A stretch of 64,000 nucleotides of DNA from Marsupella aquatica (GCA_973895155.1 OZ316893.1:28282210-28346209), one strand, 5' to 3'; counted from the stretch's first letter, positions 2,616 to 51,414 are shown. Notes: generated by a model not told the origin, from the letters alone. Program-made: numbers and translations.

Positions 2616-2639
2616 ACTGTGGATCCAGTATGCATGGGA

Positions 2640-17965: not shown

Positions 17966-18507
17966 CAGAAGGACTGTACAACGCCCTTTACCCGAGCACC
18001 AACTATGCACAACTTTGGTGCTTATGGGGTGCTGACAATATAGGAGCATTTTAGTTCGCATCTTCCGGATTCCAGAAAGGTTGGCAGTGACTTGGACAAG
18101 ACGCTTCATAACAAAGGGAATGTTTCTTCACAACAGGGAGTTTAAGTTTAAGTACATGGATTGACAACATCCAATAGAGCAACAAGCAGCTTTGCAGAAA
18201 TGGAATCTGTCATGTTTTGAGAGGCTCCTTGCGTGTCAATACCCTCCTTCCGTCGAGTAAGCCTCATGAGTTGCTCACGGCAATGTGTTGGTGATAGGAT
18301 TAGGGTTTACTTAATTGGACTACCTTTCATACGACAGAAGTGAATTTCAAGGACAGTAGATCCAAAACATGGAGGACAAGGCAGAGTCACCTTACGACGA
18401 GGTCCAGCCCTACAAGGAGGTGGAAAAGGAAGGTTTGGATTACAATACTTAATAGTTGGTCGTCATTGCATATAGTTGAATTTTGCATTGCGGTTTAGTG
18501 ATGATAT

Positions 18508-24058: not shown

Positions 24059-25984
24059 AGCATTCACAAATTAAGGCACATTGCTCGCCATCTAGAGGCT
24101 TTTGAGGCAGGCTTTGAGACTCTTACAATTATGACGAGTGATTGGAGGCCACTTGAGCTGAGCTAATGACATCCTCTGCCACCATGTTGCCCAAGCATTT
24201 GCAAAACCTCCAGTTGGTGGTGTGCAAAGAGGTGTGTATGTGCCGTACATGTTTTAGCGGGTCACTCTGTAAAATTGTATTTGAAGTAGGCTAAGGTTTA
24301 CTCCCATTGGATATGAGATGCAGGTGACGAGAATGCTGATAGTGTATGCACCACACAGGGCCTAAAAAAGGATGCATCTATGGGCACATAACAAGTGGGT
24401 GAGATATGGCTTTGCATAGCACAAGTTCTGACACGAGTATGTGGGCAGAAGAGAGAAAGGAAGTTCGGAAATTGACCATATTGTGATTGCAGCGGTGTAT
24501 ATCCTCCTCTACATATAATGTCCAGCTTCCTCTAACAATATGTGGCCTTTTCTTTCACCAGGTTATGTTTGTCATGCTTCATGATGTGTTGGATGTTGGT
24601 GTCAGACATCTACCCATAGAGTATCGTGGTATGGATGCGCCCTTGCAATTGATTTCCCGGTTATTGTCCAAGATTGTGCTGCAAGTGAACAGTAAACTCT
24701 TTGGGCTAGCTGCCTAGTTTTTGAGCAATATGGCTGGCTGTGGTGGGCCGATTGGATATGTAGATTCAGCCCCGACTGAGGGGAAAAAGCAGTGAAAAGT
24801 TGGAAGATGTCATTCCTGAGTTGCTGAAGAACAAGTTGCTATCATGCACAAAGAAGGAGTCCTTGTGCAACGGAGTAGTATAAGAACAAGTTGTTATCAT
24901 GCACAAAGAAGGAGTCCTTGTGCAACGGAGTAGTATAAGTGGGTATAGTTTATGGGAGGTGACTTGGCATGAGGTCAAGGGTATAGCACCCAACCTTGAA
25001 GTTGAGCTTTTCCCAGAACCCCAACTCGAGCCGGAACAAGAGTCAGCTGTTGTTTTGGACTCCTCCAATGAGACGGTGGACTGGAGTGAACATCCTGTAT
25101 GAACTGGTGAAGGGGATACAACTGTTGAACCCGAAAACAACAGTCAAAGAGGAGGAAGCTGAGGTGCATTTGGCAAAATTTACCAAAAGCACAATGACAG
25201 GCAGGGTACGGTCTCGCCATTTCATGATTGCAAGGTGAATTGCTGTGGATGGATGCAAAAGTGTGACCTCATTGATTGCATATTCAGTACCACTCGGGAT
25301 GTGTGGTATTCCCACAATAAGCTGGAACTGTTGTCTTCTCTTGTGTGTATGGTGAAATTAATTGGATTTGTCATCAATTCATGGTGTAGGTGGTGAGTTT
25401 TGTGGGTGCAACACTAAAAACTTGCGCTTTGGGTATAATGTGGTCCACAAATATCCCCTGTAGATGGTGAGCAGCTCAAAGTCTGGTGCTCTTATTACTG
25501 TTATAGTTCATTGGCAGATTTTACACATCCTCGTACACAAAATTGAAGCGTAACTAAGCTGAACTTTTGTATAGATGATTGTAGGTGATGCAACATATGG
25601 CCATTTAAGATGTAGCTGAAATGGTTGCTACCTTGACATTGCAATTGCTTGTAGTGATCGGATGAGGATACATGAGTTCAATTAAAACCTACCTCTCACT
25701 GCAGGTGCACGGGAGCTGAAAGTTGGATCCCTTGGGGAGTAGAAACCAGCAGCAAGTTTATCACCAGGACTCTTCACGCTGAGCACATGATGTGATGTTG
25801 CTCAGAGAAGTCTTCGTTCAACATTGAAGAACTATTTCCTTACATGAATAGAAACTTTTGTGTAATGGATGACGTTTTTGGCTTGAGCAAGAATTCACCA
25901 TTTTGAATTCAACTGAACTTTTTTTCCCCTCTTCAAAAAGTGAATTAACATTGTGGCGGATGTTGATTGATATAGAATCAATGT

Positions 25985-27677
25985 TGATTTCTGTTCAGCC
26001 TGCTACTGTAAGGAGGTTGAATGGGCAACCTTCTAGTAGGGGTTAGGGGTGAAGGTTTGTTTGGGAACAAACAGGCACAACAGGGTAGTATGGTTGCCTA
26101 ATCTATCTTGTTGTGGGCATTGTATTGCACCTCGTGCTAACCCTTGGTACACTCTTAATCTTAATAGGTGTTCATCAGTAAAGGAACAAGGCCAAGTATT
26201 CTGATAAACCCACACAACACTATTTAAAGAAAAAGAACAAGGCTGGGTATTTTGAGAAAACCACACACTCTTGACTCTGTTTACATGATAAGCGGCCATT
26301 GTCAATAAGAGATACAAAAGTGGAGGTCATGTAATGCAGTATTATGGTTCATATTAGGAAATTGGGCCATATATGTGTACAATTTAGGGTAATCTAATAA
26401 TCGAGTAATGTACAACTAAGGTTAATGTTAGGAATACGTCCGAACCTCGGGGTAATCCAATCACGAAGCAATGTACTAGACAGGTTAATCTTAGGATATT
26501 GTGCCATACACACGGATACGAAAGTTGGGGTAATCTTATCCATCAATAAATATACATTAATTAATGTTCAAGATTTGTGCCATACACATGGATACAAAAT
26601 CTGGGGTAATCCTACACAAGGATACGAAACGCAAGCCGGGGTAATCTTATAATTAATAAAGTACTAGTAAGGTTAACGTTCGGAAATTGGCCACACCCAT
26701 GGATACAAAAGCTGGGGTAATCCTACGCATAGATACAAAGCAAATGCCGGGGTATCCTACGCATAGATACGAAGCAAATGTCGGGGTAATCCAATAATTA
26801 ATTAAAGTATGAATGAATGTATTAAGAAATGTACTAAGCTGGGCTGTAAAAATGTGGGGTTTTACATACATGGACACAAAGACTATAAACGTGCGCGACG
26901 ACATGATGTAATCATGCAGGTTAGGTAAAGTAGGAATGTAACAAACAGTCTTCGGCCACAAATGAGTTTTTGGCCACAAATGAGGTGTCGTACAGCACAT
27001 TTGTTATGTTGTACAATCATCTATTTGAGTAGTGTTTTTTTATCTAAATGCCAATGTCCAATGCAAGGGAAAATTGGCAGGTCATGTGGGACCGGGAAAA
27101 AATAAATTTTGATTTATGTGAAGTGTGCCTCACATGTCGCTTCTAGGTTCCAAAAATCTAGGGTTGACGGTAAAAATAAACAACTACACCAGAATGGGGT
27201 AGGGGGAGTTTAGGGTCCATTTATATTGAATGTAATGAGAGAATTGTTTACTAGAATAAATGGTACCCCATATTTTAATAATGTGTCTATTGGTCAATAC
27301 CCAGGAAAGAAAATACAGTCCTATCTTCTTTGCACTTCAACCGACGCAGTGTAATGCTTGCCTTTCTGGGGAACAAGGTAGCCAAAATAAATTCACTGAA
27401 GAGAATAGATACGTTCAAAACTCCCGACTTTAATTTACAAATACTACAAAAAAATATTTGACTCTTACCTTACCTGAAGTTTTCCTATTGTCTAAAATCT
27501 TAAAGTTTCCCTTTCTTGAAGCTCAAATTGTTTTTCCTTCCCTGCCCTCCCCTCAGGTTTAATTTTTTCCCTAGCGCCTGAAGTTGAAGTTTTTTTCCTT
27601 CCCTCCTGGAGGTGAAGTTTTTTTTTCTTCCTGGAAAAAGCTGAATTTTTTTGGCTTGCTTTGGTTTTTGCTATTTT
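25985..27677 (+). repeat. Module C, copy 1
   Basis: Collinear with about 61600-63280 (TGATTTCTGTTCAG.CTGCTACT.TAAGGAGGTTGAATGGGCAACC onward). Contains short GGGGTAATC repeats. Confidence 0.92.
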
Positions 27678-29100
27678 TCTTCTCTCCCACTTTCACATGA
27701 TGTAGGTTTACATCATGTGTGAAAAAAACTAGGATACAACGTATGGATTTGATAAAAAAAAATCACCCCTGGTTTAGGGAACTAAAACAGAGCAGGTAAA
27801 TTTAGGCATGTACTTTGGCCAGTATTTGTCCATGCAATACCCAAAATGTTGGTCTCGTGAGGTTTAGGGTCTTTTCAGTACGTTCGGAGTCCTTCTGCCG
27901 GCGCGGGGCGCCTTCATGGGGTTCCCTGCCCGCTTTGTTGCTTGCTATGAGTAATAAAAGTACCCTCATTAATAAGAGTACCCTCGTGCACAAGGCCCAA
28001 CACAAGGGTACCCTTACGAGATAAGAATACCCTCACTAATAAGGGTACCCTCATTATCAAAGTACCATTGTTGATAAGCGTACCCATTGATAAGAGTACT
28101 CTTGTTGATATAAGAGTACCCTCATTGATAAGAGTACCCTCATACGCAAGGGTACCCTCAGGAAATAAGAGTATCCTCCTTGATAAGGGTACCCTCGTTG
28201 ATCAAAGTACCATTATTGATAAGCGTACCCATTGATAAGAGTACTCTTGCTGATATAAGAGTACCCTCATTGATAAGAGTACCCTCATACGCAAGGGTAC
28301 CCTCAGGAAATAAGAGTATCCTCCTTGATAAGGGTACCCTCGTTGATCAAAGTACCATTATTGATAAGCGTACCCATTGATAAGAGTACTCTTGCTGATA
28401 TAAGAGTACCCTCATTGATAAGAGTACCCTCATACGCAAGGGTACCCTCAGGAAATAAGAGTATCCTCATTGATAAGGGTACCCTCGTTGATCAAAGTAC
28501 CATTATTGATAAGCGTACCCATTGATAAGAGTACCCTCGCTGATAAGAGTATCCTCACTGATAAGAGTACCCTCAAGCACAAGGGTAGCCTCAGGAGATA
28601 AGAGTACCCCCATTCACACGGGGAGCAATGAAAATAGGGATAATTGTAACCACGTCCAAAAGGTGACATCTTTGATAGCCATTCGAAAACACTGTCCTTC
28701 AAAACCTTGAGGACTTTAGTTTAAGAACTTTTCTAACTAAAAGTTCAACTTGAATGTTTTCATAACAAAGAATCCAATAAAGTGTAAACTTCAATTTTAT
28801 GATGTCAATTTTTTTAGATCTTCCCACAATGTAGCAAACAAATCCACTGAATTTTTTTTCTTTTAATTCCAATTCAGTAAAAATTACAATTCCGGTCAAA
28901 TAGTACACGAACCATTTTAGATCTGAGTACCGAAATGCCGTAAGTTGTAATTTTTATCATTAGATTTATGAATAATTCAACATGTAGGTGGGAAGAAAGG
29001 GGGAATTTTGATGTTAAGGTACTCACCTTCATAAATCTACTATTGATTTGTCCCAAGGAGTGTACAGTTTTTTCCTTGGTCTCGCCTCAATATTTGTACA
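27678..29100 (+). repeat. Module D, copy 1 (palindrome + 18-bp satellite + TET 5' fragment)
   Basis: Direct repeat of 36167-37316 and of 63280-64000. Confidence 0.92.
27950..28612 (+). repeat. 18-bp minisatellite GATAAGAGTACCCTCATT with a 145-bp higher-order period
   Basis: Monomer read directly. Near-identical translated blocks start at 28180 and 28325 (145 bp apart). Confidence 0.92.
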
Positions 29101-29152
29101 ATGTTGGCATGAATGACACTGCACAGAACACTAAAAGGATTTAGTGTCTTGA
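28630..29152 (-). pseudogene. Truncated, degenerate 5' fragment of the TET/JBP-like gene
   Basis: KKIDIIKLKFTLYWILCYENI..LVRKVLKLKSSRF matches KKLDTIKLKFALHWILCHDNILELFVKKVLKLESSRF of the 56591-57955 ORF. The upstream intron and exon are also alignable to 57980-58260. Confidence 0.85.
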
Positions 29153-29976
29153 GGATGACCAAAAACAATGACAAGAAACCTGAAACTGAAACTCATTTCT
29201 CCAAGTGCATATAGAGCTTCATATCATTGGCAACAATAGTGCTTGAAGCCAACTTACTTTTGAATGAACTGTAAGGCAATATCTTGTGAAAGAGGGCGGA
29301 TAGCTTCCCAACTACTAAAGGAAGTAGATTTTGCACTCACAAAGTCATCCCAATGTCAACCAGATCCCCTTGTGCAATCTGAGAAACGTGGAGTATTCAA
29401 TAAAAAGTTCAAAGCAAAATTAGGGTTTATGTAATAAAACCATCATAAACTCAATATAATGAAATGTAACCATGTCCTTTGTGATCAATTCTGCAAACCC
29501 TTCTGTTTTTTAAATATCTACTAATTAAAAGGAAAGGATAATACACCAGAATTTACTTCAAAACTGTCAATCCTGTTCTCCTAACAATAAGAATGATAGG
29601 GAGGGAAAATGTCAACCTGGCCATACGCCCAAGTCAGGGTGTGAACTAAGCTTAATTTTCAGGATCCTGGAATTGTGGCCGGAGAGAGGCAGCTTGCTTC
29701 AGGCTTCTTCCTCATCAGCATAGCCAACACCACTAGGAGACCAACCTAGAGCAAGTACAGGTCGAGCTCCCTCTTTGTTTGTGTAGTTCAATGTTCTGAC
29801 CATTTTCAATGTACTGTGTTCCCTTGGGTTTGGATGATCTTCCCTTGGCAGAAATGAGTCACACTCCACAGTTACTCCATGCATAATGATTATTCACTTG
29901 CCCCTGGGGTTGGATGATCTTTGTGTGGGATAAATGCCCGGTTTGAGTTAACGGGCAAGTTTACATGTTGCCCTAC

Positions 29977-30050
29977 GGGGTGTGGTTGGGACCGGGTGGG
30001 GTTGGGATAGGGTTGGGATGAGGTTGGGACGGTGTCAGGATAGGGGCGGG
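29977..30050 (+). other. G-quadruplex-capable G-run cluster
   Basis: GGGGTGTGGTTGGGACCGGGTGGGGTTGGGATAGGGTTGGGATGAGGTTGGG...GGGGCGGG, many G3+ runs with short loops. Confidence 0.65.
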
Positions 30051-31028
30051 ATGACCAGATGTGACGGATGACAAATCAAGGCCAAACCAGGCATAAATGA
30101 ATCACACTTCAGAGTTACTCAAGGCAAAATGATTATTCTTCTGCCGCCGATCTGAATTGACTACTTGTAGCCTGGTGGATACTCAATAACTTGGCGAGAG
30201 GTTGTACCATAAAGATTGTTCTGGTTAGGAATCAAATAATAGTTGAGTGTTCATTAAGTGTTTATAATACCTTGAAAGGGTTTAACAGTTTAATGATTAC
30301 TTTACTACCAGTGAAAACATTTAGGGGGTCCTACACACATAAATAATATATCCTGAAGTAGAATTATTTATTTCATTGCAACTAGGCATTAGATGTAGTA
30401 TGTATACACAAGGCTCTATCATTCTAAGTTTAATTTTTTAGGGTATGTACGTGGTATGTATAAGTTCTCAGTGTCCTAGTAATAGCACATCAAAATATAA
30501 GAACATAGACTGTACAATGAATAATAGTATGTGATTTATTATCGTATGGAATGACAATATACACCGTATAGTGTCACTAATTACCATGGCATAAGTTCTT
30601 GGGCTTTATTAATTAGTTTGGTGGCTTTAGAGGCATTGGAGTAATTATTAGCCCCAAGGGCATCGAGAGAGTGCATGGTACAAGTTCACTTCCCAAGATA
30701 GTGAAAATATGATCCAACTGACCAGGTTTTGGAGAAGAGTCGGATTGAATTCGTTTAATTTGTGTCTGTGCTCACAAAGTACGTTGAATGTGTGAACATG
30801 CTCAACCAACTTCTATGTCAGTGAAGCTTTGGGTTAGATTGCACATTCATGGTGCAGATCAAGCTTGGGACATAGGTAATGGAAAATGAAAAATACTAGG
30901 ATAGTTGGCCAATTGAGATTGGCTTCAGAGTCCATTGTGGAGCTCCACGGGAAAATCTGATGTGAAGAGCTCTATATAATTTCAGAGCAAAATATGGCAT
31001 CAGCTAATTTTGTTGTTTTTCATGCAGG

Positions 31029-34000
31029 ATGGTGACAGTATTTGGATGTAGTCAGTGTGGGGAAGAATTTCAGTCAGCAAACTCTCGCAGTTCCCATTCC
31101 CGCTCAGTTCACCGTTCTACTTACCAATTGCAGCTCAACAATGGCACAACCCAGATCATTGAGAAAGAAGAGGATGGTCGATTCCATTGCCCTGTGGCCA
31201 CATGTTCCTCGTCCTATCCCCGTAGTGATAGTTTACGTCTTCACTACAAAAGGAAACACAATGAAGCAGTAGGAGTTGACCCGTTCATGGATGTAGACGA
31301 TCCAATTGTCAACCAAGTCCCCACCACTATCCTAGATCATGACCTGTTAGCAACACCAGACATGTTGAGAAATGCAAAGCTTTGCATTGTTCACCACAAC
31401 AACCTTGTTCTTCTAGTATGCTTGCAATGCCATACAGCCCTTCAGCACACGGAAGGAAGTAGCATTATCCGTCATGTTGGAAGTCATCGAAGGAACATGG
31501 ACAGGGTGAGAGTTGCAACACAAAATTCAATCACGAATCCAACACCAGAGCAATTGTCGGTTTTGTTGCAGGGTGTGTTGTTCACACGTACAAATGATGC
31601 GTCCCTACTACCATACACAATCAATCCAACTGCAGAATTGTTGTCTCCAGTTTCGGGCGTCCTCATTCATTGGGGCTTCTCTTGCTCGAGATGTATCTTC
31701 TTTTGTAGATCACAGCGGACGATGGCAAATCACCGATGTATGAAACACAACCACCTTGGTTTCAAGGACATTGCTACTCCATGTCAAGTGCAAGCCCTCT
31801 TCAAGGGAGTCGGCCGCAAATTCTATGGAGTGGACCATGGCAATGTGTACCTTGCGGATGATGCAGTAGCTCAGAGTACGAGAGGTGCAGTCGCAAAAGT
31901 TTTTCAAGCTCATCTACAGTCATTAAAGACAGATCTTGCACCTCCAGTGAGGGAATTGTCGCCGTGGCTAAGGGTATCAAGATGGCATGAGATTGCATCC
32001 CAGTTCATGCCGGAAGGTGTGCCATTTGTTGAAGTGCAATCTGAGATGGAACCCCCAAGGCCCGCCGACCCTGGGTCTTCACTATCGTACTTGGGCACTG
32101 TGGTCCGTGCGTACATGACATGCACAAGAAATATTCTTAGTGGAAATTTAGATTATAGGGTGCAAAGAATGGTGATGAAGCCGACTCCAAATGCCGATGT
32201 CACAAGGGGATTGGGTGGACTACAAGAGAAAAACACTGTTCCACAATACTGTGCTGGAATGGTTTCCCTTCTTCTTTGCCTCGTTCGTTCTTGTACTTAT
32301 GATTCTCGGCCTCAACATTGTGTTATATACACAGATAGGCCGGATCTAAAAGGTGCCCTACAACAATTATTGGCACAATTAGGCCAACCAAGTGAGGCGC
32401 GGCCTGCAGAAGAAGGTGATATTGATCTCACAAATATCCATCGAGTACTACTTCTTCTCTGGACTCCAAAAATTCCGGAGCTGTTGTATGCTCGTTCACC
32501 GGCGGATTGTTTGCTCACTCGGTTCTTTATCCTCCACTCTCTAAAGAGTGACGGGCTGGGTTCCCAATCCACAGGGTATGCATTTTGCAAAATTGGGAAA
32601 ATCACCAAAATATTGGCAATACTTCACTACTGGGCAAGATGTACAATCCTGATGGAACTCTCACAAGCTCTTTGGCATCCAAACCCACGTGGCCTACCTG
32701 GGAATGAAGTAAACATCCTGGAGAAATACGTGAGCGATGTGGCATTGGACACGCCGATTACTCAAGTTCGGCAGTACATGCGACTGGCAAAAACAATTAA
32801 TCGAGGCACCCATGCTCGACCAAATCTCATACACATGGACGATACACAAACAGCATGCTCAATTGACGGTGATATTATCACATTGAATGCGTTTAGGGAT
32901 ATGATCCGTGCCATTGTTGAAGAAGCGACAACAACACTCAACCATGATGTTCTTCTCGGTCTCAAATCTGAATGGATACTCAATTTGGTGAGTACCAAGG
33001 GCTGCATTCATGATGCTGTCCAGACAGACGAAGTGCATTATTCTTTTCTCATAGACGCCCGAAATCCAGAGTTCCAACAACATGGAAAGGATCTATTGAA
33101 CCACATGTTCAGTAATACTATGATGATGGCACATTTCATCCTACGAGTGGACAATGTAAATGGAGTTATTTGGAACATGCCTGCACTCCACAGGTGGATG
33201 GTTGCATGTTCCAAGCTACAGAGGCTATTGAACCTACTTCTGCATTTCTGTTCTGGATTACCTGCAAGAGGGGAAGAATACTCGAGCCTATTGATTCGCA
33301 ACACTGCCACTGGGGATAGAGCATTCATTTGGTTATCTGATACGCTGATGGTTTATCAATCCTACCACAAATGTGCAAATGCTGGGAAACCTATAAACCT
33401 CACTGCTCGGTTCATTCCTGACAATCAAAGCCACCTATTTGTGAAATTGTTATGTCTAGTTCGCCCAGTACAATCTTTCGTGGCAAATATTTTGTGGGGT
33501 CCGGAAGTTGCAGCAATGTACCTGGATTGTTGGTTTGTGGCCATGGACAAGAGGCTGACGGGAGCAGACCTTTCTGCCAGTGTATTAGATGCTTTCCAAA
33601 AGCACTGTGGCATTCCATTTGGGATTGCAAAGTACCGGCATGTGGCAGCACATTGGAGTGAGAATATACGAGCTTGTAAGGCCCATTTACAAGAAGACCT
33701 TGTGGATGTAGCAGGTGGTCATGAAACAGCTACGGTCGGCCATCACTATGCTCGTAGTACAAAGGATCCTAGAGGCATGGATGGACATATTTTAAGAGGG
33801 TGTGTATTGGTGTCACGATTGTGGCACAAGTTGGTTGGCCTCGGTGGGTCACAGAGGCCCGAGGTAATGTCGACTGCACCTTTTGACTTTTTGGGACCTG
33901 TTGGAGGTGTTGAATATGAGGTGAGGCAAATTCCCAAAAGGAGGCGGTTTACAGTTTTCCACTCAAACATCCATCAGACATTATTGGCAAGTGGAGAAAG

Positions 34001-35987
34001 TGATCCCCTGCTACAAGTTTGTCTCAATAGGACTGCTGGAGCTTGTCAAGCCTTAAGAAGGCTTGGTCATCAACAGTGGAAATCGTCGGAACAAGCAACA
34101 GCAGTTGCTCTATCCATAGATAATGTGGTGGACTTTGTTGCCATACTACCCACTGGGTCTGGAAAATCATTGGTGTTCATGGCACCTTCCACCATGGGAC
34201 AGAATAGGACGGTGATTGTGATCATTCCACTCACTATCCTAGTAGAGGGCCACGTAGAGGAATGCAAACAAGCAAATATTAGTTGTGTTGTGTATAAGGA
34301 TGGTGCAGTCGAAGTGGCAAGACCTCCTTCGATCATTTTTGTGGCTGTGGAGATTGCTGCAGAATCCAAACTATTCATTATCTTGGCAAAGCAGTTGAAA
34401 TGCAGTGGTTCCTTGCATTCCATTGTCTACGACGAGGTGCACCTCCTGTTATCTGACTTTCGACCGTCAATGAAAAAGTTGGTTGGCCTCATGGAAATTA
34501 ATTGCCAAATCATAGGGTTAACTGCATCCCTAGCACCCAAGAATCAAGTTGATATTGAGCGGATGTTAGCTACAGAGATGGTGTGGATTCGTTGTCCTAC
34601 TGTGAGACCCAACATCAGGTATGCCGTTGTTGAGGTTGGCCATAACATAATGGATCAAGAAATAGTGAGTCTTCTGCGTGATTGGAGAGCATATTCTTTG
34701 CCAGAAGAGAGGGCCCTAGTATTTTGTCTAACCCGCGAGGAGGTGGAATCAACTACAAGAATCCTCCAAGGGAAAGAAATGTCATGTGTGTATGTGCATG
34801 CGCATCTGGACATAGCGGTGAAGAGGGCTTCATTGAGTTCTTGGACGTCAGGTGCTTGTAAGATCATGGTGGCCACCGGAGTGATTAGTAGTGGATACAA
34901 TTATAAATGGGTTAAGCTTGTCATTCATCGTGGTAGTTTCAGGTCTCTGGAACACTTCCACCAAGAATCTGGACGAGGTGGACGTGATGGGCTCCCGGCG
35001 ATGAGTTATGTGGTGACCAACCTTGCTTATCGCAAGATGGCCGAACGCATTGATTCAACCACAGCAGCTTCACACAAATGGATAGAGAACAAGACATCAT
35101 GTCGTCGGTTTGGGCTCCATGACCAGGTCGATGGAAAACCTCAAGTATGTCATCTTATTCCATTCTCTAGTTTGTGTGACTTGTGTTCCCAAGCATCTGT
35201 GATGTGCAGCCCAGGTATGGACATAGTCGACTTTGAGGTGTTCACACAAGACATTCCTTGTAGAACAGCCTCAATTCCACCACATGAGGTAGCATCATCT
35301 TCAATGGGAATTCCAGGAAGAGGGGGTTCGGATGAGTCAACATATGAAACTCCTACGCAACCCCCAGCCACTCCCATGCCAAGACGACAAGGAAACACCT
35401 TGCCGATGACCCCAATTATACAAGGGGTACATGAAGCAGAGCCTGTGGTTGCAAGGCTAAGGGCTATGGCACACAACCGATCTTTTGAGAGTGACAAAAG
35501 GGATCTTCGTATCATCAGAACTTTTGCGGGTGATGGAAGTCAATGCTTAATTTGTCAGTGTCCTGAATCAAGGGAGCAAGAAGTACACAATGCTGTCAAC
35601 TGTCCTATATTGCGGTCATTGTGTTTTAGATGTCTAGGATCTCACCAGGCCCGGACCTGCAAGAACACATTCCCTCAAAATGCATGGACTTGTTTTAAGT
35701 GTCACTTTCAACATACTGTAGTTGTCACTAGAATGTGTATTCATAAAGGACCATATGGTGATCAGTGCAATGATAGAACAGGCGAGCGTCTTCGACATTT
35801 TGTGTGGCAAGGCTGGAGGGTTTCTCGGATACAAACAGAATTGTTCAAGGAATTTCCAGAAATTCGAGAGAAAAGTGATGAAGAACTTGCTACTTGGTTC
35901 ATGCAGATAGGTAAAGGGAAAGTAGTGAATAACTTTGTTTTGTTTGCTGCTGCTATTGTGAAAACAAAATATCCTGAGTACTGGTGA
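31029..35987 (+). CDS. 1652-aa C2H2 Zn finger / DUF3505-like / tyrosine-recombinase-like / RecQ helicase / Zn-knuckle protein (telomere-linked-helicase-like)
   Basis: Single open exon with an acceptor (TGCAG) just before the ATG. Two N-terminal C2H2 fingers; CLQC..H, CSRC..H, LSPWLRVSRWH. YR-like motifs GLPARGEE, YRH, GGHETATVGHHY. RecQ motifs LPTGSGKS, DEVH, TAS, RPNIRY, VAT, HQESGRGGRDG, CRR...C...CDLC. C-terminal CxxC..H..C knuckles. Confidence 0.88.
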   Translation: MVTVFGCSQCGEEFQSANSRSSHSRSVHRSTYQLQLNNGTTQIIEKEEDGRFHCPVATCSSSYPRSDSLRLHYKRKHNEAVGVDPFMDVDDPIVNQVPTTILDHDLLATPDMLRNAKLCIVHHNNLVLLVCLQCHTALQHTEGSSIIRHVGSHRRNMDRVRVATQNSITNPTPEQLSVLLQGVLFTRTNDASLLPYTINPTAELLSPVSGVLIHWGFSCSRCIFFCRSQRTMANHRCMKHNHLGFKDIATPCQVQALFKGVGRKFYGVDHGNVYLADDAVAQSTRGAVAKVFQAHLQSLKTDLAPPVRELSPWLRVSRWHEIASQFMPEGVPFVEVQSEMEPPRPADPGSSLSYLGTVVRAYMTCTRNILSGNLDYRVQRMVMKPTPNADVTRGLGGLQEKNTVPQYCAGMVSLLLCLVRSCTYDSRPQHCVIYTDRPDLKGALQQLLAQLGQPSEARPAEEGDIDLTNIHRVLLLLWTPKIPELLYARSPADCLLTRFFILHSLKSDGLGSQSTGYAFCKIGKITKILAILHYWARCTILMELSQALWHPNPRGLPGNEVNILEKYVSDVALDTPITQVRQYMRLAKTINRGTHARPNLIHMDDTQTACSIDGDIITLNAFRDMIRAIVEEATTTLNHDVLLGLKSEWILNLVSTKGCIHDAVQTDEVHYSFLIDARNPEFQQHGKDLLNHMFSNTMMMAHFILRVDNVNGVIWNMPALHRWMVACSKLQRLLNLLLHFCSGLPARGEEYSSLLIRNTATGDRAFIWLSDTLMVYQSYHKCANAGKPINLTARFIPDNQSHLFVKLLCLVRPVQSFVANILWGPEVAAMYLDCWFVAMDKRLTGADLSASVLDAFQKHCGIPFGIAKYRHVAAHWSENIRACKAHLQEDLVDVAGGHETATVGHHYARSTKDPRGMDGHILRGCVLVSRLWHKLVGLGGSQRPEVMSTAPFDFLGPVGGVEYEVRQIPKRRRFTVFHSNIHQTLLASGESDPLLQVCLNRTAGACQALRRLGHQQWKSSEQATAVALSIDNVVDFVAILPTGSGKSLVFMAPSTMGQNRTVIVIIPLTILVEGHVEECKQANISCVVYKDGAVEVARPPSIIFVAVEIAAESKLFIILAKQLKCSGSLHSIVYDEVHLLLSDFRPSMKKLVGLMEINCQIIGLTASLAPKNQVDIERMLATEMVWIRCPTVRPNIRYAVVEVGHNIMDQEIVSLLRDWRAYSLPEERALVFCLTREEVESTTRILQGKEMSCVYVHAHLDIAVKRASLSSWTSGACKIMVATGVISSGYNYKWVKLVIHRGSFRSLEHFHQESGRGGRDGLPAMSYVVTNLAYRKMAERIDSTTAASHKWIENKTSCRRFGLHDQVDGKPQVCHLIPFSSLCDLCSQASVMCSPGMDIVDFEVFTQDIPCRTASIPPHEVASSSMGIPGRGGSDESTYETPTQPPATPMPRRQGNTLPMTPIIQGVHEAEPVVARLRAMAHNRSFESDKRDLRIIRTFAGDGSQCLICQCPESREQEVHNAVNCPILRSLCFRCLGSHQARTCKNTFPQNAWTCFKCHFQHTVVVTRMCIHKGPYGDQCNDRTGERLRHFVWQGWRVSRIQTELFKEFPEIREKSDEELATWFMQIGKGKVVNNFVLFAAAIVKTKYPEYW

Positions 35988-36166
35988 GGAAGTAGTAAGG
36001 AAGCACTGTAAGTAATTAATATCAAGTGTAATGAAATTGTTAATTATTTCATCAATTGCTTCAATTTTTGTCTACATACTATATGGAGGAATTGGAGCTT
36101 ACCATATATACTGATGATTAGTGAATATTGTACTATAGTTAAATGAAGATTGTATCAAATCATAAG

Positions 36167-37316
36167 TCTTCTCTCCCACTTTCACATTATGTAGGTTTAC
36201 ATCATGTGTGAAAAAAACTAGGATACAATGTATGGATTTGATAAAAAAAATCACCCCTGGTTTAGGGAACTAATACAGAGCAGGTAAATTTAGGCATGTA
36301 CTTTGGCCAGTATTTGTCCATGCAATACCCAAAATGTTGGTCTAGTGAGGTTTAGGGTCTTTTCAGTATGTTCGGAGTCCTTCTGCCGGTGCGGGGCGCC
36401 TTCATGGGGTTCCCTGCCTGCTTTGTTGCTTGCTATGACTAATAAAATTACCCTCATTAATAAGAGTACCCTCATGCACAAGGCCCAACACAAGGGTACC
36501 CTTAGGAGATAAGAATACCCTCACTGATAAGGGTACCCTCATTATCAAAGTACCATTGTTGATAAGTGTACCCATTAATTGATAAGAGTACTCTTGCTGA
36601 TATAAGAGTATCCTCATTGATAAGAGTACTCTTGCTGATATAAGAGTATCCTCATTGATAAGAGTACCCTCATACGCAAGGGTACCCTCAGCAGATAAGA
36701 GTATCCTCATTGATAAGGGTACCCTTATTGATCAAAGTACCATTATTGATAAGCGTACCCATTGATAAGAGTACCCTCACTGATAAGAGTACCCTCAAGC
36801 ACAAGGGTACCCTCAAGAGATAAGAGTACCCTCATTCACACGGGGAGCAATGAAAATAGGGATAATTGTAACCACATCCAAATGGTGACATCTTTGATAG
36901 CCATTCAAAAACATTGTCCTTCAAAACCTTGAGGACTTTAGTTTAAGAACTTTTCTAACAAAAAGTTCAAGAATATTTCATAATAAAGAATCCAATAAAG
37001 TGTAAACTTCAATTTTATGGTGTCAATTTTTTTAGATCTTCCCACACTGTAGCAAACAATTTTCTCAAGATTTTAATTCTAATTCAGTAAAAATTATAAT
37101 TCTGGTCAAATAGTACACGAACCATTTCAGATCTGAGTACCAAAATGCAGTTGTAAGTTGTAATTTTTATCATTAGATTTATGAATATTTTAACATGTAC
37201 TAGGTGGGAAGAAAGGGGGAATTTTGATGTTAAGGTACTCACCTTCATAAATCTACTATTGATTTGTCCCAAGGAGTGTACAGTTCTTTCCTTGGTCTCG
37301 CCTCAATATTTGTACA
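36167..37316 (+). repeat. Module D, copy 2 (includes 18-bp satellite 36440-36835 and TET 5' fragment 36850-37316 on the minus strand)
   Basis: TCTTCTCTCCCACTTTCACAT... to ...CTCGCCTCAATATTTGTACA, collinear with 27678-29100. Confidence 0.92.
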
Positions 37317-38410
37317 TGGTGAATTAGGATGATCCTGTCTGCTGGAATTTTATTTGTTTGCCTTATACTAAAGGTACATACCATGAAGTTAGCCCACCTA
37401 AGTTCAAGCACCTCATTCCAAGATTCCATAAAGGAGTGTTAAAGCTGCATAGATGTAACTCAATTATTGCTCAGGTCATAAAACACTATTACAGTCAAGA
37501 CAAAATCACTATGGGCTACCAAAATACGAATCCCATAACACTTTGATTTATTTATTTGGACTGTAACACTTTGACACGCCCTATTCATCCTTTTGGATTG
37601 CTCTACGCTAAAGGTGCACTAAAAGAACTGAAAGATTGGGAAAGGCAAAAAATTCATTTTCCTTTGGGCCTTTGTATGCCCATTTGTATGTCATTCCGGA
37701 AGTACTAGGGTTAGGGAGGGGTTTTCTAACTAAGGAATCTTAATTACCTGCATCTTGTGGGCTGAGATTTTAGCTTTTTGTCATATCCCAATCCGACACA
37801 CTATGAAATTAGCCTGCCTGAGTTCAAGCTTAGAGGTGTGCAGGATTACACAATTCCAATATTTGGCTCCTGCTCTACACCAAAGGCACACTGAAAGAAT
37901 GGGAAAGGGTGGAGCCGTGGCTCCTTGTGTGGCTCCCACTCTATGCTAGAAAGGAAAATGTCGCAATGGGAATTTATGTCATACAGAGGTGTACTGAAAG
38001 AAAGGGAATGGGCAAAAAATTCCTTCTCCCTGGGCTTGTGTATAACATTCTAGACACACTGGATGGGTCTCCTCAAGAATGTAAGTACCTAGGCTGGTGC
38101 AAGGGGAGAGAGCATTGGTGGTAGATTAAGAGCTTCGAATATATGTATTCATGAGGACACAAAAAGTATTGTTAATTTGGTCTTGCTTCCTATTGGCTAA
38201 GACCAATTCAAGCATGGAAGCCTTAATTAGGGACACTTGTACTTAGTTAGTGCCCGCTTCTTGTTAGGTGATTCATAGGAATCCACATTATTATCCCTCT
38301 AGAGCAAATCTTTGGTGACGGCTTGGATCATAGAATAAGCGTGAATATTATACTGTAGTTAAACATAATTGTACAGATTGAATAGTTAAACATAATTGTA
38401 CGGATTGAAT

Positions 38411-38900
38411 CACACTAGATTTATTGCAAAACATAGCTACGTGTCTCTAGATCTAGTTCCCCTACAATTGTTTTTAGTTGAACCAAGGTTGATGGGTAGG
38501 GACAGTACATGGGTTCCTGCGTGCATAGACTTTGTGGATCTTCCTCCAAGTGGTGGATTTCATTTGTGCCTATCACCATAGTAACCGGATATCTGGACTC
38601 AAATGCATTTTAGCATTTTGAGCAATGGATGTTAATTACTTGGTGTTATTGACATTGTACACCAGATTTATTACTGTACATGTCTATGTGCCTCTGGATC
38701 TAGTTCCCTACAATTCTTTCTAGTTGAACCCAAGGTTGACAAGTAGGGACAGTGGGTTCATGTGTGCATAGACATTGTGAATTTTCCCGGGGAAGTGGCG
38801 GATTTCATTCGCGCCAATCACCATAGCACCCGAATATCCGGACTCAAATGCATTTTAGCATTCTTGGTGATGAATGTTAATTACTTGGTGTTATTGACAC
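38411..38900 (+). repeat. About 245-bp tandem duplication upstream of the Myb gene
   Basis: AGATTTATT...GATCTAGTTCCC...GGACTCAAATGCATTTTAGCATT...GTTAATTACTTGGTGTTATTGACA occurs twice. Confidence 0.85.
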
Positions 38901-39069
38901 TATTGTAATGGGCTCGTAGACTATTGTAAGAACCTGGGGAGCACGACCATTCTCATTGTCACCACAGTCTAGCATGACATTTGTCTACATATCAAACTGA
39001 TATCAAACCAAGATAGTGTGCCACCAGAGGTTTGGTGTACATGCCTACTAGTGGGAAGAAGGGACAACG

Positions 39070-42000
39070 ATGTCTTCCAAGCCTATGGCGATGCCAACAT
39101 TCTATTTTATCCCACCACTTGTGGTGACGACATTGTGTCAAGCGCGACATTCAGAATATCTTCAGCACAATGGGCTTGCAGATTTTGTTTTGGGAGTTCG
39201 TTGGGACACTAAGAGTCATTCTAAGTCTGACATGATAGATTTCATCCGGAACTTTGACAGTGAACAATCTGAAACATGGGTTTGTGGGGGAAGAATAGAC
39301 TTGAGTTTGGATTCTATCAAGAAGACATTCAAGTTGCAAGGGTCAGGGGAGCCATTTGAGCAAAAAGCAGTTCGATATAATCCAAGGTCATTCGCAGGGA
39401 TTAAAAGGAACAGCAATGGTTCTTACTCATTGCAATATTGCAAAGATTCCCTAATCAGAGAGAGGCTAGAGTTTCAATTGGGGGCTCTTCACTTTAAGGG
39501 GAGCAGGGCCGATGTGTCTTTGTGCCAGATAAAGCAAGTTGAAGAAACAAGTAGTAGGAAGAATTGGGGAGAATATCTTGGCGGGAGACTGATCGACCTC
39601 CTCTGCAGAGCCCGGAAACAAATCTCCGAAGGTAACATGACTTGCACTTACAATTTTGGATCCCATCTGCAAATTCTGTTGAGTGAGAAGTCCCCTTCAA
39701 TTGTGTCTTTGCCAAGGCCACAAGTATTCCATTGGAAAACATCTACTCAAGTGGGTGTGGAGCATCATGGAGTGGAAAACCACGGGATGGAGGAGAACTG
39801 CACAGGACAAAAACATCTCACAATGCATCTGCAAATTGTGAACGACGATGATGCAATGTCAGGACATGCGAAAGGAACTGTTGTTTCTAGTGTGCATGAG
39901 GGTGATCCATGTAGCAGTGGAGGACTTCTCGGGCTATTCTCAACTAGTGGAGCAGAGCCGCAAGGTCAGCAAGATGGTTCTTTTGTGAACGGACACCAAG
40001 ATGGTTCTTTGTTCAATCGAGCTTGTGACAATGAGATGGTGACAAAGGTTGGGATAATCCACGAAGATCATGCAACGTCCATGAAGACATTGAGTCTTCA
40101 AGAGACAGAACCTCTGTCGGGGGGTAAAGAACATGAAATATCAGGGAAGACATTGGGCGAAGCGGAAGCAACACCTGGAACAGAGGATAGAGAACAGGAA
40201 AAATTGAAGACAAAATTTGGTATCGAGTTGACAACAACTGGTACGGAGTTGCTGGAGCACTCTGACATATTCACACTAAAGAATGTATTCCCCTTGAGCA
40301 TTTCAGAAGCTTCAAAAACAGTCAGATCTTGTTGTACATCATGCCTGTGCTTGATGGAGGTTGTAGGTGAGTTGAAAATAGAGAAAGAGCGCCAGAAAGA
40401 CTGGAATGAGAAGATGACAACCACCTTGGAGTTACAGACAGAGAGGAACGAAACAATACTGACCAACTTGAGGATGCAAGTAGAGGCAAACAACACAATA
40501 GGTGTCAAGTTGGAGCTACTCCTACAGAGGAATGAAATGATGGTGACCACCTTGGCCGCAGTTCGTAGGGATGTGGATACTTTGAAAGACAAGTATGAAA
40601 GTGTTGCCGAGGAAGTCCGAGTTGAGCTTCAGGTATTTATTTGGATCAACCTTGGGTAACTTAGCTCATGATTCTCTCCCTTCCCCTCCTCCTCCAAAGG
40701 ATTGTTTTCTTAAATGTCTTATTAAATAGTTGGTTTAATTTGCACCGCTCGATGGAGTGGTGCACAAAAAGTTTGGGATTTTTCCATTGGTTTTGTCCCG
40801 CACTCACAGGCTAGGAGACAGATGCATTGTTTTAACAATGTTTGGGCCTTGTCTTCTCTCACTAGCTATCAGATTTGGTAAAAAGTTGGGACTGATTTGT
40901 TGTTTGCTGCAAGTCATTGTGAATATACATATTGTGGTGGAGAAATATAATTTCCGTTAATTGGATGGTTGTATTTGCAGTCTAAATTGGATCACTATAG
41001 AAAAAGGCGGGTGGAGATTGGAACAGGTAAAGAGAATTTGATAGATGAGAATGAAGGAGCTCCTTTGGAGGTGGCCAACCAGCAGATCATGGCGCCTGTA
41101 TTGTTGCCAAAGCAGGCATCCTCCCAACCAGTGTATGGTATGTAGTGCTCACCAATGTCATAGTTCAACTCATATGTAGTCTTACAGTTTGACCAAAATT
41201 GCACTAGAACTAGCATTGATTAGTTCAGATTGATAGTGTATAGAGTAGTTTCAGACTCCTAGGTCTTTGTATGTGCTGTTGATGGAGAATTGAAGTCTCT
41301 AATGTGGTGTTTTTTTTGTGACAGAGGTGAGCACAGAGGTTAATATGCTCAACAGAGGAATTACTACTAGCAAAATGCAACAATCATCAAATGAAGTCCA
41401 ACACCTAATTCATCCGGAAGCACAGAGATTAGTTGAGCTTCCAGCCCCACAGAGTGAGAATTACAAAGGCATTTGTGATATGGGGAAGAACTTAGGGAGA
41501 AAACGAATTACAGATTTGCTAAATCCTCCTTCTCGATCCCTAATCACCCCGTTCCAATCCAAAGACAAAGCAGAGGAGGGCAATCTAGCAACTTCGAGTG
41601 CCAAGGTGAGGTGGTCCGCAGGAAACTTCTTGTTTTTAATCATTGGTGACAACAACATCTATCTTGTACAGTATGGAAGATGTACTGTATTTTGTAATGT
41701 TTGCAATCCTTGCTGGAGTATTACAAATTGGATGTCTTTGCAGGGCCCAGGGAAGGAGGATACGTCCAGCCCGTCATCTAAGAGGTTGAGGCTGCATCAA
41801 GATTGTATTGGAATACAAAATTCCAAATTGATCACCCGGGCAGTCATGAAAGAAGGCCCCAATGGTCTAATACGTGTTCGTAGGGCAACTAAAAGGTGGT
41901 CTAAAGAGGAAACAAATTGTCTCAAACAGGCAGTCCGCAGGCAAGTAGAGAACCTATGACTTATCAATCAAAATGCATTGACGTAATATCTTACCTAGCT

Positions 42001-42286
42001 GGTATTAATTGGTGTTTTTCTCTAAGAACAAGAGGTTTTCTAAGCCAAGGTTAATTTCAGGTTTGGACCAGGCAAGTGGAGTCGAATTCTTGCTGCCGAG
42101 GGTGCACACTTCATTGACCGGTCTGAAGTAAGTCTTCTACGGTTATATCCTGCTTTTTGTATTACTGTATTTACCCTTGCACACAAAACAAATTGCATGC
42201 TCATCTATCATGTTTTATTGACTTTGACACAGATTGATCTGAAAGACAAGTGGCGAAACCTTCAAACAAAAGATTTAAAGGATTAA
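39070..42286 (+). CDS. PMD/Athila-ORF-like domain + coiled coil + C-terminal telobox (TRF-like) Myb protein, 6 exons
   Basis: Exons 39070-40632, 40981-41137, 41325-41605, 41744-41940 (GC donor), 42061-42127, 42233-42286. The spliced C-terminus reads KRWSKEETNCLKQAVRRFGPGKWSRILAAEGAHFIDRSEIDLKDKWRNL (telobox signature LKDKWRN). Confidence 0.85.
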
Positions 42287-42586
42287 AGGACCATAGGGCG
42301 GGACCATACCCTGTGTCAAGCCTCGAATGAGTGAATGCCACCAAGGAGTGAAATTTCTCATGGTCGTGCAAGTACGGATGGATGAGGGAGATGAAAGCAA
42401 AGTTTGTGGAAGAGGAGGAAGGGAGCATGCATTTAGGGTCAAAGGAAGGTTGAGACCCCCTCATTCATTCATTGAGCAATCAGAAAATCCCTACCTTCAT
42501 CGTTAGTGATGAAGAGATTGGCTTGCAAATGACTGATAAGTGGACAAAAATCTCTTCCTTCTAGTTAAGTTGTCGACAATGGCTTC

Positions 42587-42647: not shown

Positions 42648-45600
42648 GTCCAACTGGCCAAGATTAAGAAAGGGCCTGTTAGTCTAGAGGACAGCTATTG
42701 AACTACATTTTGGAGATTAATTACATTCATTTGAAGATTTTTGGCTGATCTTTGAGAGAACTTAGTGTTATAAGTTGGTCTGGACACACATTCTTGGTTG
42801 TGTGCTTGTGCAACATTATTGTAAATAATGTGTTCCATGTCCTGATGTTCATTTAAGTTGAATACACAGTTTAAATTGAATGATGCAAGTCAGAGCAATG
42901 AACAAATTTGATCGGGAAGTGACATAGAAAGCCATAAACTTTTGTACTAGATCTCTTCGGATGAGAGTACCAAACAAGAGTGCCAATAGGGCGTGTCAAA
43001 ACACAGCCATAAGCCCTGTCCACTGTCAGTCCCTCTTTCAAATAGCCGTAAAACAAAGTTACGGGAATTTTAAGGGCAGAAGTTGATCAGGTACTTTGAC
43101 ACGTCCTGTAAGAACTAGTTATGGGGTAGAAAAGAATCTTAAGGATGGTGACAAAGTTGCAGGTGTCATCACCATCGCAGGCTGTCAATGAGTCTTCAAG
43201 AGAGATTTTTGGTCTTAGCAACAAAGTAAATGTAGTGGCAATCAAATCCAGAATAGAAAGCGTTGGCCAGAATCAGAACAGCAGAAATTTGGACGGCGCA
43301 TCGTCGTAACTTTTGCCACTGTGTTGAACCTAGGAATTTAATAACTTCTGAGACAATTGAGCGCCTCGAAACTATTTCGACAGGGGCGTAGTCACAATTC
43401 TGCACTCAAAGCTAAGAGAGACTCTGAAATTAAGCACTCAAAGCTAATAGAGACACCAACATTGAAGTACAGATGAGTAAAAAACAGTAGTTGTTCAATT
43501 GCGCTTGCACAGAGATTAGCATTTTAGTTTCATGTGATGTGCAATAGATTGTTACATGTGGGGATTTGTCACCAACATACTTCTAAAATCAAATCCATTG
43601 TTTGAAAGTCTGTTAAAATGAGCAAAGGACATCCAAGAGCAAGCAATTTCTATTCCCCGTAGAATCTCGGTTTCAGAACTGTTTGTTCTTTGTCAAAACT
43701 AAATTCATGTAATATGGAAGAACAAGTAGCAAACAATTAGAAGAATTCCTTGCTCGAGAGTGCCTGTAGAACAATTTTGGGAGACAACCATCCATCACCA
43801 CAATTCACAGCTCGATGTAGCAGCCATGTCGGTGAGCTTGCTCGCCGTCACCTATGCGGCTCTCATCATTAAATAAGATTGGAGGGAATCTCTTCCTCAC
43901 CCCAATAGTGCATTGACTACGAATTCAGGACAAACAGCAACGATATTGATGAATGTGGACCTAAGTGTGATGCCCAGATGGATTTCATCAAGAATTTCAG
44001 AGGAGCTGCCCAAATTCGTGAGTGGGGAAAATACACTCAGTTCACCCCTCATTCCATCATTGGGATCATCGTAGGGGCCACTTATGCCGGGTAGGCTTTG
44101 CACTAGTGACTAGTGCCGGGGCGACTTCTCTTAAAACAGATGGTCTTCACCCTACGGACATAAAACTTTATGATGTATGAGACTTGCGGGGCACCTTTGT
44201 AGGTACCCCATAAGAAGTTACTTCCAAGCCATAAAAGTGATTTATGTCCTAAGCTATAACTGAGTTACGGCTGGGCTTTGATGCCCTAATAGAGTCTAAA
44301 CAAGAGATTTCAGTATATGCATTAGAGTCTTACAGCTTGTTGTTTTGAGGAGATACCATAATATTTCAAATTTTAAAGATAGTGCATTGGAGCTAAAAGA
44401 GTATTTGGAATTAGTTCGTGGGCCCCCTAGTTACATTTTTTAGGCCTTGTTTGAGTATAATTAATGTATGTAATATTTACTCTAACTCAAGTTGTCAAAG
44501 GCTATTATTTATGGTCAAAATTTTTATGGTATCGTAGATTGTTATGATAAGATAATTTTACAAATTTTAGTGAAAATATAGGAGAAATTAATTACCTCAT
44601 CCAAAGTGATGTGATTTTTGCAATCTTCTGCATAATATATGACCAGGAAAATAAGGGCTTTTAGCTTGAGTTTTGAGAGTCTAATATGGTCCATAATGTT
44701 ATGCTAGCATACATTAAACTACTAATTGAGTAGAAATTAAGCTTTCTAGTACATATATTAAAATAAACAACTAATTGAGAGGAGTGGAATTATAACACAC
44801 TTCTTCATGAAACATATATTTGAGATATAATATAGTTATGAATAATATATAGTAGTGCAAACTATCTAAGTAATGAAAACTATTCTAGATTAGGTGGCTT
44901 GCGGAAAGATCCCCTAGATTGAGAGTCTATCCTTTGGTCATATAGTTTGTTCTTTTTTAGTTCAATCTCCTTTTTTATAAGTTGTGTGTAATGTGTGACC
45001 CCCTAATAGTGTTGCAAAGAGAGATAATAAAGCATAATTAATGATTAACAAGTCATGATTTATATATTAAAGTATTGTCTAAGTACAACTAGGTTAACTG
45101 TCAGAAACTTTTAACGGTTTGTACGTTGTGTGGGGTGTACCCAACTTCATGAGATATAGGACAAAAGGGTGGCCGACAAGAAAATGAACAGTGTCAGGAT
45201 TGTACCCTCTCCATTCAAGCGAATATCATCACAAGAGGGATTGTACCCTCAGTCTCCATTCAAGAGAAGAAGAGTCATCATTGCTTGGATACAGAAGGAA
45301 CTGGAACAAGGGAAGCTATTGCTCCAAGACATAGGAGGAAGAGGATTCAAGCACCATAAAAGGAAAGGCACTAAGACACTAAGACCACCGTCCGCTATTC
45401 AATTGACCGTGCCATTGTTGAAACCACTTCAATCTATGAGACCAACATGTTTGCCAAGTATATTAGAGTTTTCACAGTGCGAGCGCCCCATTGAAATCTT
45501 TAGGAAGGAAGGATGTTCCGAATGTTTGCGAAGTGGATAAGTTGACTGAACTACCTTCATTTGTAAAGATTTCACAATGACATCTCCAAATCAAACCCGA

Positions 45601-45685
45601 GTAGAGGTCCCTCCAGCCAAAAATAAACAACCTCGATCAACTCCAGAAGAAAGATTGAGGAACTCAATCTCTGAGGTGGCTTTCA

Positions 45686-51264: not shown

Positions 51265-51414
51265 TGTTTCACCTGGGACAGGTCATAGTTTCAGTGGAGG
51301 GCGGTAGGTAGTTTGTACTTTATTAGAATCAGCATTCCCTCCCCCTTCACAAGTGTTCGGAATTTTAGTTTTTGCACTGGACGCTGAGAGAAGCGTCCAC
51401 CCTAAAACTTAGTC

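Follow-up and report, generated by a model that had tools for sequence, protein, structure and literature searches.

Introduction

Telomere-linked helicase (TLH) proteins are defined by C2H2 motifs, a TLH domain of about 250 residues located 5' of the helicase, and RecQ motifs, and the available text of the preprint that describes them calls their function undetermined (bioRxiv 10.1101/2024.02.27.582403). According to the same text, TLH blocks are present at the majority of chromosome ends in fungi, some single and others arrayed, each flanked on either side by telomere repeats, and the tlh genes of S. pombe are cited as being induced in cells without telomerase and as speeding their recovery (bioRxiv 2024.02.27.582403). 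Subtelomeric repeats carrying helicase and DUF3505 domains are treated as families of transposable elements in the accessible part of another paper, where the word "recombinase" does not occur (PMC5576322). Here we analyse an open reading frame (ORF) of this family at 31029-35987 (+) of a 64,000-nucleotide stretch from Marsupella aquatica (OZ316893.1:28282210-28346209, hereafter the window), and we present evidence that the unexplained domain of the TLH family is very likely a tyrosine recombinase (YR).

The window ORF shares with the TLH proteins (S. pombe tlh1/2, Magnaporthe TLH1 and those of Fusarium, Ustilago and Monosiga) the pair of C2H2 motifs, the DUF3505/OrsD domain, a conserved region ahead of RecQ and an ORF length of about 5 kb. 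An earlier reading made by a model from the sequence alone (the original prediction) had called the layout fungal-TLH-like, and the C2H2 patterns, OrsD and RecQ bear this out. The conserved block at residues 715-940 lies at the position published for the TLH domain, which was reportedly defined by Rehmeyer et al. in 2009; the canonical TLH proteins were compared by description only. Unlike them, the ORF stands in the genome of a non-seed plant and no telomere array is found within the 64-kb window; we therefore class it as a TLH-family protein and not as a telomere-linked locus. It is an intact member of the family outside fungi, away from a telomere.

The words "recombinase" and "integrase" are absent from the available text of the TLH preprint (bioRxiv 2024.02.27.582403), as is "recombinase" from that of PMC12857005. 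In the openly accessible running text of the papers searched, with Repbase and the figures and supplements of bioRxiv preprints lying outside this scope, the TLH domain is nowhere called a recombinase, and no eukaryotic tyrosine recombinase fused to a helicase was found. Like the locus, the AcademH transposons, which are DNA elements of eukaryotes, code for a RecQ-like helicase, but their transposase is a DDD/E enzyme that comes with terminal inverted repeats, and neither of these was seen in the window. The captains of Starships (DUF3435) and the Cryptons are comparable in that they are tyrosine recombinases of eukaryotic DNA elements; the captains also have a variable first His, and the locus may likewise be a large unit with cargo. 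However, captains lead their element and have no fused helicase (a word not mentioned in the available text of PMC10104507), and neither DUF3435 nor DUF3504 gave a Pfam match in the 84 members of our alignment.

Domain layout of the ORF

The ORF is a single frame of 1652 amino acids with no stops, which by composition would arise by chance with a probability of about 1e-41. From the N- to the C-terminus it comprises C2H2 fingers, the OrsD/DUF3505 domain, a region of about 600 residues without annotation, the RecQ core, a zinc site and zinc knuckles:

31029-35987 (+): intact TLH-family ORF of 1652 aa, a predicted tyrosine-recombinase/RecQ fusion (translation, Pfam, homologue searches, contig of run X1)
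31047-31259 (+): two N-terminal C2H2 fingers (residues 7-28 and 54-77), matching the published TLH patterns
31392-31751 (+): OrsD/DUF3505 domain (residues 122-241; Pfam PF12013, E 5.8e-7), PF12013 (OrsD) being taken by us as the former DUF3505
32049-32810 (+): predicted helical core-binding domain of a tyrosine recombinase (about residues 341-594) with family-specific insertions (AlphaFold model, structure alignments)
32811-33863 (+): predicted tyrosine-recombinase catalytic domain (about residues 595-945), which takes in the published position of the TLH domain (structure comparison, conservation)
34092-34991 (+): RecQ-type helicase core of superfamily 2, motifs I-VI (Pfam, motifs, PDB sequence matches)
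35100-35186 (+): RecQ-type four-Cys zinc site (residues 1358-1386; pattern match)
35544-35710 (+): C-terminal zinc knuckles (residues 1506-1525 and 1532-1544; pattern match), shared with the metagenomic homologue L002 described below

In the helicase part Pfam finds DEAD (residues 1022-1173) and Helicase_C (1224-1321), and the closest sequences of solved structure are RecQ proteins (RECQ1, E 2e-25); across residues 330-950 Pfam gives no match. The pattern used for the zinc site is presumably that of the RecQ type. The RecQ motifs, zinc site and zinc knuckles named in the original prediction are thus confirmed by Pfam, by PDB sequence matches and by the patterns.

The ORF is not an artefact of the assembly, because an independent contig of 5814 bp from the public run X1 spans 30270-36087 with 19 differing letters and 4 gaps. 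In run X5, which has a different organism label, a contig covers 30985-35526 with 158 differing letters and 15 gaps. The ORF had been predicted to be intact and intronless. The stop-free frame supports this over all 1652 codons, but a sequence resembling a branch point and acceptor occupies 31005-31028, immediately 5' of the ATG at 31029, so that splicing to an upstream exon is possible, with the ORF as a long terminal exon.

Conservation of the catalytic residues

A HMMER search with residues 331-948 returned 1378 representatives at E<=0.001, and the counts of conservation and fusion reported here were made on the best 150 of these 1378. The relatives are mostly 22-35% identical. The candidate catalytic residues are:

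33267-33269 (+): Arg747, first catalytic Arg (RxxE, in GLPARGEE), 144 of 146 rows
33369-33371 (+): Lys781 (YHK), probable catalytic Lys at the beta2-beta3 hairpin, 144 of 145 rows; strands present in the models
33636-33638 (+): Arg870 (YRH, 33633-33641), second catalytic Arg, 125 of 127 rows
33720-33722 (+): His898, counterpart of the catalytic His/Trp, 119 of 122 rows; register from structural alignment
33747-33749 (+): Tyr907, predicted nucleophile, 121 of 122 rows; nine residues after the His as in XerC, in a poorly modelled segment

The five occur jointly in 115 of the 122 rows covering this stretch, so that the original prediction stood up to its own test of conservation, and they make up five of the six best-conserved among 224 columns (98-99% vs 32% for the median column). 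Glu750 of RxxE is found in all 147 alignment rows. The catalytic order R...K...R...H...Y is therefore present, with GLPARGEE, YHK, YRH, the His and the Tyr each standing where they had been predicted. The first His of HxxR had been described as not conserved, and indeed position 867 is Ala in the window protein and varies in the family (Ser in 32, Asn in 28, Ala in 20 and Arg in 19 of 128 rows). In the available text of a paper on Starship captains this His varies or is substituted in active tyrosine recombinases (PMC10104507), and its absence is therefore not disqualifying.

One would argue that the domain might be a catalytically dead DNA-binding module of the YR fold, comparable to Ndc10 or Zincore/QRICH1, which tethers the helicase. 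The missing first His would agree with this, as would the matches to Ndc10 and Zincore (Z 4.6-5.9) in the structure comparison. However, the Arg, Lys, Arg, His and Tyr stay 98-99% invariant despite an identity of 22-35%, and because of this a dead domain is very improbable. We hold it highly probable that the predicted recombinase domain is catalytically active, and the explanations weighed below differ mainly in what this activity would do.

The predicted fold of the middle region

Two AlphaFold2 models were made and compared with 48,161 representative chains: a long model of residues 341-945 (84 sequences; predicted local distance difference test (pLDDT) 86.8, predicted template modelling score (pTM) 0.86) and a model of the catalytic domain, residues 710-941 (80 sequences; pLDDT 88.8, pTM 0.84). 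The top match of the catalytic model was XerA (Z 12.0, root-mean-square deviation (rmsd) 2.9, 153 residues aligned), and further matches were XerA 5hxy (Z 10.4), XerH (9.6) and Cre (8.7). Its rows 1-31 all belong to the fold of tyrosine recombinases, type IB topoisomerases (TopIB), Ndc10 and protelomerases, and the first unrelated row has a Z of 3.5. The long model likewise matched XerA best (Z 10.6, rmsd 3.0, 163 aligned) and was aligned over both domains with Cre (Z 9.0, rmsd 5.2, 254 aligned) and XerH (283 aligned). Only tyrosine recombinases, TopIB, Ndc10, Zincore and protelomerase are found in its rows 1-28, if SroF, MrpR and QRICH1 are counted as the same fold, as we assume; the first unrelated row has a Z of 4.7. 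Cre, XerH, IntI and lambda Int align over long-model residues 8-589 and so take in the core-binding domain, and the isolated N-domain 3nrw matches residues 14-243 of this model with Z 5.0.

Ten rows of the catalytic model stop at model residue 193, a point that follows His898 by four residues and precedes Tyr907 by five. The corresponding position of Tn1549 Int is 374, and the Y379 in the title of its entry follows five residues later; in Cre (319), lambda Int (337) and HP1 Int (310) the corresponding ends presumably lie four past the catalytic Trp or His. Therefore, judged by these end points only, His898 and Tyr907 stand in the YR register.

According to the models, the middle region would very probably adopt the tyrosine-recombinase fold, and the recombinase is predicted to be complete, with a core-binding as well as a catalytic domain. 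It would share its two-domain fold and the R-K-R-H-Y order with Xer, Cre and IntI (XerA 4a8e, XerH 5jjv, Cre 1kbu), and the His-to-Tyr spacing of 9 with XerC; the other spacings are 34, 123 and 28 here vs 24, 95 and 23 in XerC. The window protein differs from the Xer/Cre group in that it lacks the first His, has large insertions, holds the domain between zinc fingers and a helicase, and shows no detected sequence similarity.

The domain could also be imagined as an enzyme like the telomere resolvases, which would turn a replicated palindrome into the hairpin ends of a linear element or of a chromosome. In its favour, the fungal members of the family are linked to telomeres, the fold and the His/Tyr register recur in protelomerases (the TelK row ends at 420), and ResT is also reported to unwind (PMC5388405). 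Nevertheless, this explanation is improbable: TelA and TelK reach a Z of 4.0 and 3.2 vs 12.0 for XerA, and no long palindrome lies near the ORF.

Homologues of the fusion protein

A RecQ-type region is present in 63 of the 150 homologues, the remainder being mostly fragments, and it is carried by 56 of the 57 homologues that reach the domain end with at least 250 residues beyond. The recombinase-RecQ fusion is the rule across the family. The top match overall among the best 150 is a protein of Calypogeia, 51% identical over the region. Thirty of the 150 relatives were looked up and 11 had an organism name: Calypogeia fissa (a liverwort, its protein being a different one from the top match), nine basidiomycetes and one lichen ascomycete; one named relative is annotated as "ATP-dependent DNA helicase tlh1". 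As ten of these eleven are fungi, one could suspect a mis-assembly that put fungal or otherwise foreign DNA into the plant contig. This is hardly credible, since the closest named relative is that of the liverwort, contigs of four runs cover the ORF, single contigs of X1 and X5 extend from it into the flanks, and further copies of the flanking repeats are present in other parts of the window.

A quick maximum-likelihood tree of the helicase (57 rows, 48 of them different, no plant RecQ included) joined the window protein with that of Calypogeia (SH-aLRT 95) within a clade of 13 rows (99). The helicase of the window ORF shares 44-45% of its residues with the two TLH-type relatives nearest to it vs 27% with E. 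coli RecQ. A horizontal transfer involving fungi is compatible with these data.

Word-index searches for homologues gave 1, 0 and 3 proteins, the one without a match being limited to proteins above 2896 aa, and the ESM Atlas returned helicase clusters when queried with the whole homologue P0050. A metagenome scan with P0006 detected four loci (L001-L004), none with a telomere array. L002, to which L001 is near-identical, holds a full-length relative at 8118-13324 (33% identity for residues 215-1043, 45-48% for the helicase and 34% for the C-terminal knuckles), which keeps all five catalytic residues and contains several insertions of 50-60 nt that we read as introns. Beside it lies a gene with a Crinkler N-terminal domain (15178-15612, E 1.8e-17), which suggests a fungus-like host. 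The 3' end of this homologue is duplicated in inverted orientation 12 kb upstream (1215-1446 vs 13151-13384, 85%). L003 and L004 carry a decayed copy.

The locus and its neighbouring genes

The window is rich in transposons, with pieces of Gypsy reverse transcriptase, RNase H and integrase at 984-2679 and 50443-51264. The ORF itself lies between direct repeats:

27678-29100 (+): upstream copy, with an 18-bp array and a decayed 5'-end piece of a dioxygenase-like gene (blastn)
36167-37316 (+): downstream copy, a non-obligate terminus (the X5 contig leaves the window sequence at 36169)

The two copies are 85-87% identical by blastn, reaching 97% in the best 300 nt, and decayed 5'-end copies of the dioxygenase-like gene sit in both. 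Obligate ends of the long terminal repeat kind were rejected for them, because these repeats recur at 61597-64000 and 57724-58262 and the X5 contig departs at 36169. A further, composite repeat is found at 11340-12589, 16796-17967, 25982-28412 and 59498-64000, its right-hand copy being without the 954-aa ORF and the SNF2 gene; within it, 11340-12589 is repeated at 59498-60619. In both copies the composite repeat starts at one and the same sharp boundary, to which a contig of run X3 joins a similar short word from about 49335. Short shared words lie near 11340, 49335 and 59498, with one joint in X3.

The telomere-type word TTTAGGG occurs 23 times in the window (20 on +, 3 on -, among them 180-193) vs 9.4 expected from shuffles. 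It is scattered in arrays of at most two units, several of them within duplicated segments, and the excess was rejected as a sign of telomere linkage since it consists of scattered single copies that are partly duplicated.

Contig depth is not equal to copy number and was read with this in mind. In X3 the ORF contigs have a depth of 1936-3441 while several near-identical contigs from non-coding parts of the locus stand at 257-331, which hints at extra copies of the ORF; a gene of ten copies was dropped as a firm claim, the depth in X1 being uniform across 24-62 kb. In X5 the depth is 46-82 over 28877-36169, 38380-42293, 45334-49166 and 56738-58717, and 0-6 over 24000-26535, 42664-43991 and 51296-54615. 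These depths give a hint of a unit of several genes, about 30 kb long and lacking the Gypsy insert; an orthologous locus of the ordinary kind would, however, give the same X5 pattern. The candidate companions and the SNF2 gene are:

39052-40659 (+): candidate companion ORF without a family (X5 depth as for the TLH-type ORF; no Pfam or PHROG match)
41303-42290 (+): candidate companion, a probable spliced telobox-type Myb gene (weak Myb match, E 0.013; X5 depth 50.9)
45659-49315 (+): candidate companion ORF of 1218 aa without a family (X5 depth 57-82; no Pfam match)
56591-57991 (-): candidate companion, an intact 2-oxoglutarate-Fe (2OG-Fe) dioxygenase-like ORF of 466 aa (X5 depth 46-58; HxD...H motif)
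21805-24058 (+): spliced SNF2/RING (Rad5/16-like) gene between repeat blocks (flank depth in X1)

The Myb gene begins 5 kb after the TLH-type ORF and has one intron with a GC donor; the motif in its exons is presumably the telobox, which binds telomere repeats. The HxD...H motif of the dioxygenase-like ORF we take to be of the TET/JBP-like type, and this ORF had no match in Pfam, PDB or PHROGs. Membership of the SNF2 gene in the unit of the TLH-type ORF is unsupported, as the 3' end of this gene is absent from X5 (depth about 1 at 24000-25900). Four long intact ORFs on the + strand (18505-21369, 39052-40659, 45659-49315 and 51406-53892) contain stretches of coiled coil or low complexity and match no family; the first of them contains about six tandem repeats of 63 aa. 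An NSD-like ORF with multiple PHD domains at 58606-59304 (-) has a contig depth 20- to 400-fold above the local baseline in all four runs, and this segment is a separate high-copy repeat. Taken with the liverwort relative, the Gypsy pieces and the SNF2, PHD, Myb and dioxygenase-like genes would point to a non-seed land plant as host.

Discussion

The explanation that we favour, with a probability of roughly 0.58, is that the ORF codes for a fusion of a RecQ motor with a catalytically active tyrosine recombinase, which mobilises or spreads its own DNA unit via a phosphotyrosine and a Holliday junction. Binding to short sites at the ends of the element would fall to the zinc fingers and the core-binding domain, and Tyr907 would nick the DNA to give a 3'-phosphotyrosine. 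Paired protomers would then exchange strands through a Holliday junction, by which a circle could be excised or joined to a short matching target, while the fused RecQ motor may unwind or branch-migrate the intermediate or aid the copying of the circle. The target of the fungal members would be the telomeric repeat, and we propose that this is why TLH blocks are bounded by telomere repeats and set in arrays. The copy in the Marsupella aquatica window sits among transposon debris, away from any telomere array. The patchy range of the family (a liverwort, basidiomycetes and a lichen fungus) and the decayed copy in L003 and L004 support a selfish element.

Several results weigh against this explanation. 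At the sequence level no recombinase was found by Pfam in the ORF and the 84 alignment members (DUF3435 and DUF3504 included), by PHROGs with 20 proteins, or among PDB sequences searched with the region and with the profile A2; hhalign against the XerC family (81 sequences, a narrow profile) gave a probability of 0.9, equal to that of shuffled columns. The geometry of the active site is unsupported, as the segment of Tyr907 has a pLDDT below 50 in the domain model, and His898 stands at the end of a low-confidence segment in the long model. In the window and the contigs analysed, neither element ends nor a target duplication nor an empty site could be identified, the X1 contig of the ORF has a depth of 106.9 vs 83-130 across 24-62 kb and is thus not amplified over its flanks, and no neighbour genes are common to the window and the four relative loci. 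Moreover, the same fold and residues also serve type IB topoisomerases and telomere resolvases. Foldseek, which the original prediction had proposed together with AlphaFold, gave no match at E<=0.001 against PDB and BFVD, whereas the AlphaFold models aligned with the YR fold (XerA at Z 12.0), the structural match on which the original prediction was to stand or fall. For the 605-aa model the PDB rows were only noise, and in BFVD integrases, which are the top named rows, appeared at E 0.005-1 only. With the long model Foldseek ranked first a protein of 620 aa from Feldmannia species virus (E 0.005, probability 1.00, TM 0.32), presumably an integrase, and this likens the domain to the phaeoviruses (FsV-158, EsV-1), which encode a tyrosine-recombinase integrase according to the available text of PMC13236599. 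Unlike in these viruses, there are no viral genes in the window, and the viral contigs searched held no relative, a search that reaches close relatives only.

It could be that the domain is active but serves its own RecQ as a TopIB-like swivel or junction resolver, in a host or domesticated enzyme of telomere repair or recombination. TopIB chains match the models with a Z of up to 8.0, the first His is absent here as it is in TopIB enzymes, and RecQ helicases are normally partnered with a topoisomerase. In X1 the depth of the ORF equals that of its flanks, and under a second species label the ORF is conserved to about 96.5%, four of six listed variants being silent, a number too small for a test of selection. 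The induction of tlh in S. pombe and the faster recovery of telomerase-less cells, as cited in the available text of bioRxiv 2024.02.27.582403, would fit such a role as well. However, the Xer/Cre-type matches have a higher Z (12.0, 10.4 and 9.6), the core-binding domain is matched by Xer/Cre-type proteins and lies outside the TopIB rows, and the patchy distribution, the decayed copies and the setting dense in transposable elements favour a selfish element. We consider the swivel, the strongest of the alternatives, unlikely, and the recombinase that mobilises its own unit remains our preferred explanation.

A wider and tentative proposal, which we put forward as a possibility on the doubtful side, is that TLH genes drive a superfamily of eukaryotic DNA elements not yet recognised as such, in which a tyrosine recombinase is joined to its own RecQ motor. 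Such elements would target telomere repeats in fungi, would have crossed between early fungi and bryophytes, and would here drive a unit of at least 30 kb with a telomere-repeat-binding Myb and a TET/JBP-like dioxygenase; the intact copy may still be active.

For more than two decades TLH genes have been on record at the chromosome ends of fungi, and the available text of the preprint still gives their function as undetermined (bioRxiv 2024.02.27.582403). With Tyr907 as a named nucleophile, this function becomes testable by a single point mutation. A recombinase domain would offer a mechanism by which near-identical TLH blocks spread across chromosome ends, and also for the role of these genes in the recovery of cells without telomerase. 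The intact copy in Marsupella aquatica indicates that the family reaches land plants, and it provides a candidate enzyme for biochemistry.

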